A stretch of 16,518 bases of DNA from a virus. Its lineage: Duplodnaviria > Heunggongvirae > Uroviricota > Caudoviricetes. The DNA is taken from IMG/VR virus record IMGVR_UViG_2526164609_000012; one strand, 5' to 3'. Of the stretch, positions 50 to 3,641 are shown piece by piece (position 1 is the first letter of the stretch; every line of letters begins with the position of its first letter). A program made the position numbers and the translations under genes. A model generated the notes under the pieces. The model was given only the letters and a program-made list of their open reading frames with translations. It did no database searches and had not been told where the DNA came from.

Positions 50-583
50 ATGAACGCAAAAATCAGATACGGCCTGTCGGCTGCCGTTCTGGCGCTGATT
101 GCCGCTGGTGCGCCTGCGCCTGACATTCTCGACCAGTTTCTGGATGAAAAGGAAGGTAACCACACCACGGCATACCGTGATGGCGCGGGTATCTGGACCA
201 TCTGCCGCGGTGCCATCCTGGTGGATGGCAAACCTGTCGTTCCGGGCATGAAGTTGTCGAAGGAAAAATGCGACCAGGTTAACGCCATTGAACGTGATAA
301 GGCGCTGGCATGGGTGGAGAAAAACATCAAAGTGCCGCTGACCGAACCCCAGAAATCGGGGATCGCGTCATTCTGTCCGTACAACATTGGCCCCGGTAAG
401 TGTTTCAGCTCAACGTTTTACCGGAAACTGAACGCCGGAGACCGGAAAGGTGCATGTGCTGAAATTCGTCGCTGGATATATGACGGCGGCAGGGACTGTC
501 GGAACCGCTCAAATAACTGTTACGGGCAGGTATCGCGGCGTGACCAGGAGAGCGCGCTGGCGTGCTGGGGTATCGACAGGTAG
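50..583 (+). CDS. phage endolysin, lysozyme family, with N-terminal signal-anchor-release (SAR)-like hydrophobic segment
   Basis: 177-aa ORF, ATG at 50. N-terminal hydrophobic stretch (GLSAAVLALIAAGAPAP) followed by EGNHTTAYRDGAGIWTICRG, which resembles the catalytic Glu/Asp/Thr block of P21/T4-type phage lysozymes. Lies directly upstream of Rz/Rz1. Confidence 0.85.
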   Translation: MNAKIRYGLSAAVLALIAAGAPAPDILDQFLDEKEGNHTTAYRDGAGIWTICRGAILVDGKPVVPGMKLSKEKCDQVNAIERDKALAWVEKNIKVPLTEPQKSGIASFCPYNIGPGKCFSSTFYRKLNAGDRKGACAEIRRWIYDGGRDCRNRSNNCYGQVSRRDQESALACWGIDR

Positions 584-672: not shown

Positions 673-716
673 AAAACCCCGTTTGTTGGCAGCAAGCGGG
701 GTTTTGTGTTTTCTGA
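673..716. terminator. intrinsic-terminator-like hairpin between endolysin and Rz
   Basis: 9-bp stem AAAACCCCG (673-681) pairs with CGGGGTTTT (697-705), 15-nt loop, followed by GTGTTTTC. The A-run on the 5' side makes it look bidirectional. Confidence 0.4.
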
Positions 717-803
717 CCTTGAGTAAGGCAAGGGAGAAATTATGGTGAGGGAGGTGCTTTCCCTGTGAGGAAGTATAAAAGATTCTTTCTGAGGTTGTCC
801 ATT

Positions 804-917
804 ATGAAAGGCATTGAAGTGGAGACGCCAGCCAGTCTGGATTTAACAAGAGCGGCAGCTTTTGCCATTCGTATTGTGGCAATTGCTGTTCTGGTCTGGG
901 CAATCCGTTGGTGGTGA
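804..917 (+). CDS. small hydrophobic ORF (37 aa) between endolysin and Rz, function unknown
   Basis: ATG at 804 with GAGG 8 nt upstream; translation MKGIEVETPASLDLTRAAAFAIRIVAIAVLVWAIRWW has one predicted transmembrane segment. TGA at 915-917 lies 1 nt before the Rz ATG at 919. Too short for the ORF track; found by manual translation. Confidence 0.3.
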   Translation: MKGIEVETPASLDLTRAAAFAIRIVAIAVLVWAIRWW

Positions 918-918
918 T

Positions 919-1386
919 ATGAACCGTGTTCTGTGCGTGGTCATCATTGCCCTGCTGGTGGCCTGTGGTGCGCTTAGTCTGGGGCTGAATCATTACCGTG
1001 TTCACGCCATCATCTACAAAGAGCAGCGCGATAAAAAAGCCAGTGAGCTGGAGCTGGCGAACGCGACAATTACTGATATGCAGATACGCCAGCGTGATGT
1101 CGCTGCACTTGATGCCAGATACTCGAGGGAATTAGCCGATGCGAGAGCTGAAAATGAAACTCTGCGTGCTGATGTTGCCGCTGGTCGTAAGCGCCTGCGG
1201 ATCAACGCCACCTGCTCCGGTACCGTGCGTGAAGCCACCGGCACCTCCGGCGTGGATAATGCAACCGGCCCCCGACTGGCAGACACCGCTGAACGGGATT
1301 ATTTCATCCTCAGAGAACGGTTGATGACAATGCAGAAGCAGCTGGAAGGGGCACAGGACTATATCCGCACTCAGTGCCTGAACTAA
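919..1386 (+). CDS. Rz: Rz-like i-spanin (inner-membrane spanin subunit)
   Basis: Internal ATG at 919 of ORF 862-1386. N-terminal TM segment then coiled-coil sequence (HYRVHAIIYKEQRDKKASELELANATITDMQIRQRDVAALDARYSRELADA...ADTAERDYFILRERLMTMQKQLEG) closely resembling lambda Rz; contains an embedded +1-frame lipoprotein ORF. Confidence 0.85.
   Translation: MNRVLCVVIIALLVACGALSLGLNHYRVHAIIYKEQRDKKASELELANATITDMQIRQRDVAALDARYSRELADARAENETLRADVAAGRKRLRINATCSGTVREATGTSGVDNATGPRLADTAERDYFILRERLMTMQKQLEGAQDYIRTQCLN
1139..1324 (+). CDS. Rz1: Rz1-like o-spanin (outer-membrane lipoprotein) embedded in Rz
   Basis: 61-aa ORF wholly inside Rz in another frame: MRELKMKLCVLMLPLVVSACGSTPPAPVPCVKPPAPPAWIMQPAPDWQTPLNGIISSSENG. 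Lipobox-like VSAC and a proline-rich mature part as in lambda Rz1; AGGGA 8 nt upstream. Start could instead be the ATG at 1154. Confidence 0.8.
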   Translation: MRELKMKLCVLMLPLVVSACGSTPPAPVPCVKPPAPPAWIMQPAPDWQTPLNGIISSSENG

Positions 1387-1724
1387 GTTTTGCTGATGCG
1401 CCGTATCGTCGCTGTATTCCCTCATTAACAGAGACCGCAGCCCGACAGGGAGACTCCTCTGCGCGAGTGTGCGGGGATAATCAAAAACGATACACACCGG
1501 GGTTTACCGCGTTAACGGAGCGCGGCGTTGTCCCCTCATAGTCGCCAGTCCGGTGCGATGGTGGAAGAAACAGGACGATGTGTTACCTCGCAAGCCCTGT
1601 TATGTCATGTGTCTGATTTGTGATTTAAGTCGGATAATTGTCGTTGCCATTAAGCAGAGGATTGATGACCGACAGGGCGGCATTGTTAGAATAAGACTTA
1701 TTTTTATCTGTGCGGGGAATGAAA

Positions 1725-2051
1725 ATGAAAAGAAATCTTCCGTTAATTATTTTGTTGTCTTCTCTGGTTATGGGCTGTACGCAACATAAAACAGATATGC
1801 CCCGACAGTTGGTTAAGGCATTACCACAATATCCGGCCTATGCAGCGGCAAATTATATAAAGGGACGGGTTGATGTGAGGTTTGATATTGGTGCTGATGG
1901 TACTGTCACCCGAATTGAGTTTATTCGTTCAGAGCCGCACCATCTGTTTGATGAGCAGGTTGTAAAGGCGATGGCAAAATGGCGATTTGAGAAGGACAGG
2001 CCGTGTAAAGGCGTGAAGAAAACGTTTATCTTTAGTCCTTCCGCACCCTGA
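1725..2051 (+). CDS. moron lipoprotein with TonB C-terminal-domain-like fold
   Basis: ATG at 1725 with GGGGA 6 nt upstream (ORF track starts at GTG 1710). Signal peptide MKRNLPLIILLSSLVMGC with lipobox-like VMGC. C-terminal part (PAYAAANYIKGRVDVRFDIGADGTVTRIEFIRSEPHHLFDEQVVKAMAKWRFEKDRP) aligns by eye with the E. coli TonB C-terminal domain signature (G.V.V.FD...DG.V...P...F...V..AM..WR.E). AT-richer than flanking phage genes. Confidence 0.7.
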   Translation: MKRNLPLIILLSSLVMGCTQHKTDMPRQLVKALPQYPAYAAANYIKGRVDVRFDIGADGTVTRIEFIRSEPHHLFDEQVVKAMAKWRFEKDRPCKGVKKTFIFSPSAP

Positions 2052-2424: not shown

Positions 2425-2790
2425 ATGGCTGAGCTTCGTACACTCCAGAGCAGAATCAAAACACTGAATACCCGACGGGTGAATATTCTGAAGGGTGAAC
2501 AGCGTCGTGTCAGTGGCAGTGCACGTGTTTCCCTCAAGCGTCATATCTGGCTCAGGGACGCCGGGCAGTGCCGTCTCTGTGGTCGTGTGGTTGACCTCTG
2601 TGACAGTGAACTCGATCACCGAATTGCACTTCAGTTCGGTGGTGGTAATGAGGAGACGAATCTCTGGACGCTCTGTACCGAATGCCATCGACAAAAGTCT
2701 GCTCGTGAAGCGGCGAGTGATATGCCGGACCCGACGCTGCCGGAGGTGTCCGGAGGTAGTGGCAGAGAGGACGACATCATCGGACTGTAA
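2425..2790 (+). CDS. HNH endonuclease, packaging-associated
   Basis: 121-aa ORF with Cys pairs and HNH motif (CRLCGRVVDLCDSELDHRIALQFGG...NLWTLCTECHRQKS); GGGGA RBS. Sits immediately upstream of a cos-like repeat region and the terminase small subunit, the usual place for terminase-associated HNH proteins in HK97-like phages. Confidence 0.85.
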   Translation: MAELRTLQSRIKTLNTRRVNILKGEQRRVSGSARVSLKRHIWLRDAGQCRLCGRVVDLCDSELDHRIALQFGGGNEETNLWTLCTECHRQKSAREAASDMPDPTLPEVSGGSGREDDIIGL

Positions 2791-3080: not shown

Positions 3081-3641
3081 GTGCTGACAACGCAAAAACG
3101 AAAATTTGCGCTGGCGCTCATGTCCGGGAAAAACAAAACAGCGTCAGCCATTGCCGCCGGTTATTCGGCGAAGACCGCCAGGGTTAAAGGCTCGCAGCTG
3201 GCAAAAGATCCGGAGGTGCTCGCGTTTATAGCCCGTAAACAGTGCGAAACGGTGGAGGTGGATGAGGTTCCTGTTTACCGGCAGAAAAAATCAGAGCAGG
3301 AGGATAAACCCCGTCGCCGTGAGGCGGCTGCAATACCACAGCCGGACGAAAACAATCCGGAGATGCCACCGCCCGCGGTGATGTCTCATGGTATTGAATA
3401 TATGGAGGATGGTCTTCCCGATCCGGTGAAAGCTATGGGGCAGATCCTGGTGGAAAACCTCAGCATTGATCCGAAACTGGCACTGGATGCGGCCTGGCGA
3501 CTGGCGCAGTTCACACACCATAAAAAAGGCGATGCCGGTAAAAAATCGGCAAAAGGTGATGCCGCGAAAAAAGCGGCTAACCGTTTTGCGGTACCACCAC
3601 CACGACTGGTGGTGAATAACGATAATGAGGGCAACGGATGA
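3081..3641 (+). CDS. terminase small subunit
   Basis: 186-aa ORF, GTG start at 3081 preceded by GGAGGAGG. N-terminal HTH-like segment (KRKFALALMSGKNKTASAIAAGYSAKTARVKGSQLAKDPEVLAFI) typical of small terminase subunits; stop overlaps the large-subunit start (ATGA at 3638-3641). Confidence 0.8.
   Translation: MLTTQKRKFALALMSGKNKTASAIAAGYSAKTARVKGSQLAKDPEVLAFIARKQCETVEVDEVPVYRQKKSEQEDKPRRREAAAIPQPDENNPEMPPPAVMSHGIEYMEDGLPDPVKAMGQILVENLSIDPKLALDAAWRLAQFTHHKKGDAGKKSAKGDAAKKAANRFAVPPPRLVVNNDNEGNG

Follow-up and report, generated by a model that had tools for sequence, protein, structure and literature searches.

A conserved small membrane-protein gene, predicted to be tail-anchored, between the endolysin and Rz genes of a lambdoid prophage

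The stretch of DNA analysed here, 16,518 nucleotides of the IMG/VR virus record IMGVR_UViG_2526164609_000012 (referred to below as the window), begins with the lysis cassette of a lambdoid prophage, as judged from gene content and Pfam matches. Between the endolysin gene R and the i-spanin gene Rz of this cassette the plus strand carries a short open reading frame (ORF) at 765–917 that almost certainly encodes a translated, selected, membrane-anchored protein. A role as a non-essential inner-membrane accessory factor of lysis is the leading hypothesis for this protein, with a rough probability of 0.4–0.45. A sequence-only reading of the window had picked out the 3' part of the frame (804–917) as a 37-codon ORF with a Shine–Dalgarno (SD) sequence and one hydrophobic helix, ending 1 nt before the start of Rz; all of these features are present, as judged from the sequence, the Kyte–Doolittle profile and an AlphaFold2 model. 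Its placement in a lysis cassette, between a signal-anchor-release (SAR)-type endolysin R and Rz, is likewise borne out by the Pfam assignments of the neighbouring genes.

Lysis by phages of Gram-negative bacteria is usually described in terms of a holin, an endolysin and a spanin. The releasin of phage Mu and Lcc6 of LambdaSo indicate that further small membrane proteins can be decisive in lysis, and the gene described here combines strong selection and a lysis-cassette location with a start on which databases disagree. If the peptide tunes the timing of lysis, an effect on phage burst and Shiga-toxin release would be expected; if it turns out to be just another accessory protein among the many hypothetical ones, what is gained in practice is a gene model corrected by extension to position 765.

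Evidence for a selected gene

Two diverged lineages of the ORF were taken from IMG/VR and a phage collection: type A, that of the window, in which the ORF lies between the SAR lysozyme and Rz, and type B, represented by Escherichia phage phiSTEC1575-Stx2k. Over the 153 nucleotides of the frame (765–917) the two types differ at 26 positions, 20 of them third codon positions, and the Nei–Gojobori ratio of nonsynonymous to synonymous substitution rates (dN/dS) is 0.046 in the ORF frame, whereas the two remaining sense frames give 1.5 and 7.6. All four amino-acid changes that fall in the hydrophobic helix are exchanges among isoleucine, leucine and valine. The sense frame is moreover open in all 13 diverged loci that were compared (loci and database proteins are designated by L and P numbers, respectively). 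These substitution patterns uphold the earlier view that the ORF is a genuine small membrane-protein gene, and both the ORF and its coupling geometry are conserved in relatives, in which the stop-N-ATG junction is kept.

Gene boundaries and start sites

The 37-codon form (ATG 804–806, TGA 915–917; MKGIEVETPASLDLTRAAAFAIRIVAIAVLVWAIRWW), which is also the form annotated by the Prokaryotic Genome Annotation Pipeline (PGAP), is probably too short. The frame of the peptide is open upstream as far as a GTG at 765, and the 50-residue product read from this codon (765–917, plus strand), (M)RKYKRFFLRLSIMKGIEVETPASLDLTRAAAFAIRIVAIAVLVWAIRWW, matches the family profile PHROG 4493 from end to end: the long form aligns with positions 1–54 of the 56 in the profile with an expectation value (E) of 1.4e-24, compared with 5.5e-16 for the 37-residue form. 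Within the 13 extra residues lies a motif, Y-[KR]-[KR]-x-F-x-x-R-L-[ST]-M, which precedes ATG 804 and is kept in the most distant members (P0183, P0187, P0196 and P0205) recovered when 1.8 billion proteins were searched with a profile, and also in two loci (L091 and L093) in which gene callers annotated the short form only. The codons of the motif vary synonymously between lineages (AGA/CGA, TTC/TTT, CTG/TTG and TCC/TCT). The start codon at the position equivalent to 765 varies: the window has GTG, L008 and (independently) L061 have ATG, and L102 has TTG. An SD sequence, GAGGGAGGTG (747–756), is located 8 nt before GTG 765, and L102 shows the same layout, GGGAGGTG-N8-start, with TTG as the start. 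The length of 37 codons originally given to the ORF is therefore not supported, given the conserved motif upstream of ATG 804 and the alternation of GTG, ATG and TTG at 765, and the long form is probably the main product.

The shorter product may nevertheless be made as well. The internal methionine encoded by ATG 804 is present in all 13 diverged loci, and an SD-like TGAGGT (790–795, plus strand), formed by the Leu-Arg codons CTG AGG, places GAGG (791–794) 9 nt before this ATG. In 13 of 13 loci an arginine codon two or three codons before the internal methionine reads AGG or AGA, giving UGAGG or UGAGA 6–9 nt before the AUG; at the other arginine positions of the same genes AGG or AGA is used in only 13 of 49 cases. 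This codon usage points, with moderate likelihood, to an additional short isoform started at ATG 804, and the simplest reading would be a dual-start gene with 50- and 37-residue products.

An eight-codon mini-ORF (742–768, plus strand; ATG GTG AGG GAG GTG CTT TCC CTG TGA) overlaps the long-form start, its stop codon sharing bases with GTG 765 as GTGA. It has a good SD sequence, AGGGAG, 5 nt upstream and is not conserved in L102. On comparison of the window with lineage B and P0001, the mini-ORF is probably a frameshifted remnant of the longer N-terminus seen in relatives (TEKILVG...); it might also feed ribosomes to the start at 765.

Predicted structure and topology of the protein

The hydrophobic helix, AAFAIRIVAIAVLVWAI, has a mean Kyte–Doolittle value of 2.51 over 17 residues. 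An AlphaFold2 model of the long form, calculated from the family alignment, contains a short helix (residues 4–14) and a second helix (residues 23–49) with a predicted local distance difference test score (pLDDT) above 90. The first helix is basic and strongly amphipathic, with a hydrophobic moment of 0.84. The part of the chain that precedes the transmembrane segment carries a net charge of +4 and only the residues RWW follow the segment, so that, by the positive-inside rule, the product is predicted to be a tail-anchored protein of N-in/C-out topology. The picture that emerges is of an inner-membrane protein of about 50 residues, with a basic amphipathic N-terminal helix (KYKRFFLRL) predicted to be cytoplasmic, a short linker in which Gly, Glu and Pro residues are conserved, and one C-terminal transmembrane helix that would leave Arg-Trp-Trp alone in the periplasm.

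Alignments, distant members and the AlphaFold2 model agree in that the family keeps this architecture, namely the basic N-terminal motif, the G-x-E...P linker and the C-terminal transmembrane helix, and it is kept at saturating DNA divergence. The sequence [RK]WW forms the C-terminus of most members; a C-type sub-family from Escherichia coli and Salmonella (60 residues) has a different end, ...LAKLVIALKS. Since RWW is also kept in loci without a closely following gene (L088, L090 and L101), it is a feature of the protein too.

Junction with Rz

A single base (T918) separates the TGA of the peptide from the ATG of Rz at 919. The SD sequence of Rz, GGTGGTGAT (910–918, plus strand), matches GGAGGTGAT, the complement of the anti-SD sequence, at eight of nine bases and is built from the Trp-Trp-stop codons of the peptide: TGG TGG followed by TGA, TAG or TAA generates an SD-like GGUGG. 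In the window this SD sequence is predicted to be paired with Rz codons 9–12 in a local hairpin, with a probability of 0.8–0.99. Predicted pairing together with an SD sequence inside the end of the ORF is consistent with classical translational coupling. The coupling to Rz proposed from the sequence fits this arrangement, and a translational linkage of the peptide to Rz is considered likely. The last codons, UGG UGG UGA, would serve as the SD sequence of whichever gene follows, and ribosomes that finish the peptide would be handed to Rz because the Rz AUG lies 1 nt after the peptide stop.

The spacer between the stop and the next start is -1 to +2 nt in eight of the 13 loci, and the coupled position is held by five kinds of gene, encoding Rz, a lipoprotein, a DNA methyltransferase, a baseplate protein or a lysozyme. 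In L102 (3175–4108) an ORF of 310 residues, read by eye as a DNA methyltransferase, lies between the peptide and Rz with its ATG 1 nt after the peptide TGA, so that the coupled position has been taken over.

Hairpin upstream of the gene

The 5' element of the peptide cassette is a terminator-like hairpin, AAAACCCCGTTTGTTGGCAGCAAGCGGGGTTTT (673–705, plus strand), with a 15-bp stem and a folding free energy of -21 kcal/mol; an A-tract precedes it and a T-rich tail follows. A scan based on RNAfold, which allows bulged stems, showed that each of the 13 diverged loci has a homologous GC-rich hairpin, flanked by an A-tract and a T-rich tail, that ends 28–64 nt 5' of the long-form start. The free energies of these hairpins range from -10 to -30 kcal/mol, with compensatory changes in five of ten stem pairs. 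The gene on the 5' side of the hairpin varies by locus and may encode a SAR lysozyme, an M15 peptidase region, an endolysin of glycoside hydrolase family 108 or 19 (GH108 or GH19 type, as read from sequence motifs), a capsid protein or a tail fibre.

No promoter-like site was found by a promoter scan on the plus strand between the hairpin and the start. Because of the terminator-like hairpin upstream, the peptide gene would be read mainly by antiterminated late transcription. The unit has the look of a portable cassette, with insulation on the 5' side and a transfer of ribosomes to the next gene on the 3' side. This design, in which an upstream hairpin and two putative starts are combined with a stop region that would act as the next ribosome-binding site, may show in compact form how a small gene can be transferred from one operon to another while its neighbours stay expressed.

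The ∼90 nt from the R stop to the hairpin (584–672) are 85–93% identical across hundreds of phage and prophage records, whatever gene follows. The region 584–720 folds better than shuffled sequences (z = -2.55) and matches no Rfam family; the conserved stretch could be an RNA derived from the 3' untranslated region or simply part of the R module. Rfam searches with the whole window at the gathering threshold and with 540–960 at E up to 10 returned only sub-threshold chance matches.

Genomic contexts and possible role in lysis

Lysis cassettes account for eight of the 13 diverged contexts, and the other five are in head or tail modules. The gene follows a SAR lysozyme in the window, L006 and L102; it follows an M15 or GH108 endolysin in L005 and L067 (both of lineage B and counted once) and in L096; and it is found after a GH19 endolysin in L099, before a lysozyme in L093 and in a cluster of a holin and a SAR endolysin in L088. 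In lambdoid phages without Rz/Rz1 the peptide and a small lipoprotein occupy the spanin slot. Judged from this positional evidence, a non-essential accessory factor of lysis in the inner membrane is the best available hypothesis; such a factor could tune the triggering of a holin or pinholin, the release of the endolysin or the action of the spanins. The suggestion in the sequence-only reading that the peptide might be an antiholin or another regulator of lysis retains the status of a leading hypothesis and not of a finding, because most contexts are lysis cassettes and the dual-start layout is reminiscent of holin/antiholin genes. The gene cannot be essential, since it is absent from many otherwise similar lysis cassettes.

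Several points weigh against this assignment. The five non-lysis contexts are varied: the gene precedes a portal gene or a sheath-initiator gene, follows tail fibres or a capsid gene, or lies in the structural module of a podovirus. The cassettes that lack the peptide gene include that of the K-12 prophage Qin. The gene occurs with unrelated types of endolysin and holin, which argues against a specific partner. The peptide shows no homology to any characterized lysis protein. Without a detectable promoter the timing of expression is deduced from position only, and the dual start is read from conservation of the sequence. Finally, the wider region around the junction has a folding z-score of only -1.1, and the hairpin that pairs the Rz SD sequence is a prediction for the window. 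A homolog considered in Qin was rejected, as rrrQ overlaps rzpQ there and no small ORF lies between them.

Among the alternatives, the one that survives best, although it is the less likely explanation, is that the gene is a moron-like mobile gene whose small membrane protein serves some purpose other than lysis, such as superinfection exclusion, counter-defence or modulation of a host membrane protein. Such a gene would merely lodge in those gaps between late-operon genes where insertion is tolerated, frequently downstream of a terminator, and the gap between R and Rz would be one of them. The same cassette of hairpin and ORF is indeed found after capsid genes, before portal or baseplate genes and after tail fibres, and is combined with unrelated endolysins and holins; the R–Rz gap of E. 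coli prophages is variable and holds different small transmembrane ORFs, hybrids and fragments; and a built-in SD sequence for the downstream gene would cut the cost of insertion anywhere. Lysis cassettes are, however, over-represented (eight of 13) although lysis genes make up a small fraction of the genome, and no match was found by PADLOC. Exclusion functions usually require expression in the lysogen, against which both the lack of an own promoter and the upstream hairpin argue. The usual attributes of a moron, an own promoter and a downstream terminator, are also missing: the hairpin is upstream, no promoter was found and the distance from hairpin to start is only 33 nt in L006. A type I toxin, a small hydrophobic peptide paired with an antisense RNA, is not supported either, with no plus-strand promoter between the hairpin and the start, minus-strand sites at chance level and no toxin–antitoxin RNA at threshold in Rfam, in which ohsC matched with E = 3.5.

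The R–Rz gap is a recombination hot spot. In E. coli DP033 (L002, 1600–2170) it contains four small transmembrane ORFs, among them a truncated C-type copy and a 28-residue hybrid (MSAELIRAMAFAIRIVAIAVLVWAIRWW), and further hybrids occur among database proteins (P0029, P0179 and P0039). In L088 (3428–4410) five small ORFs, including a family member, a related 52-residue ORF and a holin-like 59-residue ORF, are flanked by a lambda-type capsid gene and a gene for a SAR endolysin and are separated by three near-identical hairpins (CAAACGCCCCGGCAGTTnGCCGCTGCCGGGGCGTT), giving the appearance of an array of shuffled cassettes.

A decidedly improbable alternative is a role in disruption of the outer membrane, in which the peptide would act either as the inner-membrane partner of the small lipoprotein, forming a minimal substitute for Rz/Rz1, or as a cationic membrane-active peptide similar to gp28 of phage phiKT. 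Neither Rz nor Rz1 is detectable in lineage B (including the complete phage phiSTEC1575-Stx2k) or in L099, and a lipoprotein of 56–60 residues begins 1–2 nt after the peptide in the usual spanin position. A tblastn search of the complete phiSTEC1575-Stx2k genome (L103) found no Rz and no Rz1, and the only lipoprotein candidate in its late region is a 60-residue ORF starting 1 nt after the peptide stop. The size of the peptide (50–57 residues) and its cationic amphipathic N-terminal helix would also suit a gp28-like function. Against this, intact Rz/Rz1 genes follow the peptide in the window and most loci; with only three residues predicted to reach the periplasm it cannot span this compartment as an i-spanin does; and its transmembrane helix is truly hydrophobic, unlike gp28. 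The copy of the lipoprotein 3' of Rz in type-A loci is moreover a pseudogene, so that the pairing of peptide and lipoprotein may be an accident of deletion.

The lipoprotein genes linked to the peptide are located at 1649–1831 in L005, 2649–2831 in L067 and 3165–3335 in L099, in genomes with holins and an endolysin. The 60-residue lipoprotein of lineage B (lipo60) belongs to PHROG 7528, and an example of its pseudogene copy 3' of Rz in type-A loci is found at 3435–3602 in L009. Peptides of another family, PHROG 6632 (e.g. MFDFSKLIREIRVMAEKLSTWKFILIWLVFVIMASGYFIGQIRWW), are present in the same slot in L003 (∼1700–1820), L002 (1723–1814) and L088 (4305–4403). They end in RWW-stop just before the next gene and have an N-terminal extension with an embedded SD sequence (CGG GAG or AGG GAG) 9 nt before an internal ATG; PHROG 6632 may be distantly related and built to the same plan. 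It is conceivable, if improbable, that RWW-ending tail-anchored peptides (the PHROG 4493 family and PHROG 6632) represent a new class of portable lysis module with an insulating hairpin, dual-start effector and inhibitor isoforms and a built-in SD sequence, in which the peptide and a coupled lipoprotein (∼30 mature residues in lipo60) would replace Rz/Rz1 in lambdoid Shiga-toxin (Stx) phages that lack these genes.

It is very improbable that the ORF is a translated leader only, with translation unfolding the initiation region of Rz and delivering ribosomes to it while the peptide itself is functionless. The stop-N-AUG geometry and the presence of the Rz SD sequence, predicted to be base-paired, in the last codons would suit such a leader, as would the 3' end CGTTGGTGGTGA that is common to otherwise different peptides before the same Rz (L003). 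The strong conservation of the amino-acid sequence described above, with conservative I/L/V substitutions in the helix, stands against it, as do the persistence of the architecture at saturating DNA divergence and the retention of RWW where nothing is coupled downstream.

The probability that 765–917 holds no gene at all, but an ORF open by chance, a reflection of an antisense gene (the minus-strand ORF 740–868) or a stretch conserved only as DNA or RNA, is almost negligible. In the window (42 residues) and in lineage B (116 residues) the minus-strand frame that shares its wobble positions with the sense frame is open, and a promoter-like site is present on the minus strand at 801–772, but this frame has stops in six of the 13 diverged loci in which the sense frame is open throughout, the three promoter-like sites found compare with 2.8 expected from shuffled sequences and the region matches no Rfam family.

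Three candidate features in and around the ORF were accordingly rejected: the antisense gene at 740–868, owing to its stops in six of the 13 diverged family members; the minus-strand promoter at 801–772, which is at chance level; and a terminator-like hairpin at 862–882 inside the ORF, which is no more than expected by chance and lacks conservation in lineage B.

Comparison with known lysis systems

Holins have one to four transmembrane helices and a charged C-terminal tail, and dual-start holin/antiholin genes are known from lambda (S107/S105) and phage 21 (S71/S68), in which the two starts are 2–3 codons apart. The peptide gene resembles the latter in being a membrane-protein gene of a lysis cassette with two in-frame candidate starts, each with an SD sequence, and in that the longer product would have extra positive charge at its N-terminus. 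It differs in that its starts are 13 codons apart and its helix is at the very C-terminus. Searches of Pfam and NCBIfam at E up to 1 gave no match to a holin family, nor to an antiholin, releasin or spanin family, and the cassette of the relatives already has its own class II holin. An i-spanin subunit has an N-terminal transmembrane helix and a periplasmic coiled coil, whereas the peptide has only RWW after its helix, and the true i-spanin, Rz, is encoded by the next gene.

The Mu gp25 releasin (PMC9239132) is a 99-residue protein that has an N-terminal transmembrane helix (N-out/C-in), an anionic cytoplasmic domain and a DUF2730 assignment. Like the peptide, it is small, is anchored in the inner membrane by one transmembrane helix and has almost nothing in the periplasm; it is an accessory lysis factor encoded a few genes from a SAR endolysin. 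The peptide, in contrast, has 50 residues, its transmembrane helix is C-terminal and its cytoplasmic part is cationic (net charge +4); it does not match DUF2730 in Pfam and belongs to a family that also accompanies cytoplasmic endolysins (M15, GH108 and GH19).

Lcc6 of LambdaSo, a lambda-like Shewanella phage with a pinholin and a SAR endolysin, is a single-transmembrane protein of 65 residues that is needed at the holin step; it consists of an N-terminal transmembrane helix and 43 cytoplasmic residues and is essential for lysis (bioRxiv 10.1101/2024.01.23.576932). It illustrates that small membrane proteins besides the holin, the endolysin and the spanin can act as lysis factors, also if their genes lie outside the cassette. 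The peptide gene differs in being dispensable, as many related cassettes are without it, and the two proteins are compared here by description. Mu gp25 and Lcc6 thus offer a circumstantial precedent for small accessory lysis proteins with a single transmembrane helix.

The phiKT gp28 disruptin is a cationic, amphipathic helical peptide of ∼56 residues that is strongly membrane-associated and replaces the spanins in a spanin-less phage (bioRxiv 10.1101/515445). The peptide is similarly a small cationic phage product with an amphipathic helix encoded together with lysis genes. However, gp28 has no hydrophobic transmembrane helix, and the peptide coexists with intact Rz/Rz1 in the window, lineage B alone lacking spanins. 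For each of these analogues the peptide fails the defining features that could be tested, be it the domain, the topology, the charge or the presence of a transmembrane helix.

Family, database entries and distribution

With the 50-residue form as the query the family corresponds to PHROG 4493 and is also matched by phrog_1115 (E = 2e-11) and phrog_3246 (E = 9e-5); the profile search of 1.8 billion proteins yielded 37 cluster representatives. The exact 50-residue sequence is deposited as AAG56189.1 from strain EDL933, 'unknown protein encoded within prophage CP-933O', and as UniProt Q8X4B6, 'Transmembrane protein'. The exact 37-residue sequence is the multispecies hypothetical protein WP_000675931.1 in RefSeq, and PGAP calls the peptide in genomes of enterohaemorrhagic E. 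coli (EHEC). The expectation that the ORF would be missed by routine annotation is therefore not correct: besides the PGAP entry, both exact sequences are found, on at least 1000 contigs, in GenBank, RefSeq and UniProt. A 40-residue version is annotated as a 'putative membrane protein' in E. coli TW09109. These entries assign no function and agree on no start, with versions of 37, 40, 50 and 57 residues side by side.

The protein thus belongs to an already catalogued, uncharacterized family. The entries grouped under PHROG 4493, 1115 and 3246 (AAG56189.1/Q8X4B6 and WP_000675931.1, which are identical in sequence to the two forms of the peptide) agree with it in length, transmembrane helix and prophage late position; the hairpin, the dual start and the SD sequence in the stop region are not described there. 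Sequence searches of Pfam and NCBIfam (E up to 1), PADLOC and the PDB gave no match for the peptide, Foldseek found no relative of the AlphaFold2 model in BFVD, and one divergent family query matched no viral contigs. A literature search returned nothing on the peptide sequence, its accessions or its PHROG identifier, nor on the peptide among the small transmembrane proteins of lysis cassettes. No description was found anywhere of the anatomy of the cassette (hairpin, dual start and SD sequence in the stop region) or of its bias towards lysis cassettes, the spanin slot of Stx phages without Rz among them.

A 401-bp query around the ORF is covered to at least 80% in 668 of 5426 complete E. coli genomes (about one in eight), and EHEC prophages and Stx phages are included. 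In many other E. coli genomes the end of R and the hairpin are followed by different small transmembrane ORFs.

Neighbouring genes in the window

The upstream neighbour of the peptide cassette is the endolysin gene R (50–583, plus strand), which matches the phage lysozyme family PF00959 (E = 3e-26) and is called 'lysozyme' by PGAP in relatives. A SAR-type endolysin is one with a signal-anchor-release membrane domain, and the N-terminus of R contains a SAR-like hydrophobic segment, MNAKIRYGLSAAVLALIAAGAPAP.... Downstream, Rz (919–1386, plus strand; PF03245, E = 1e-49), the second gene of the coupled pair, contains the embedded gene of the o-spanin lipoprotein Rz1 (1139–1324, plus strand; PF06085, E = 2e-21) in the +1 frame.

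Rz/Rz1 are followed on their 3' side by genes for a lipoprotein with a TonB_C domain and an HNH endonuclease and by packaging genes. The lipoprotein, MKMKRNLPLIILLSSLVMGC... (1722–2051, plus strand), is encoded just 3' of Rz/Rz1, has a TonB C-terminal domain (PF03544, E = 9e-15) and, among the other loci fetched, recurs in L029 alone. PHROG 1267, its best match in that collection, carries the label 'Rz-like spanin'; in view of the TonB_C fold of the product this label seems mistaken. The ORF at 2425–2790 (plus strand), whose relatives are HNH endonucleases according to PGAP, adjoins the presumed terminase genes on their upstream side and shows nothing unusual, an HNH endonuclease gene just 5' of the terminase genes being the usual layout in packaging modules of the cos/HK97-like type.

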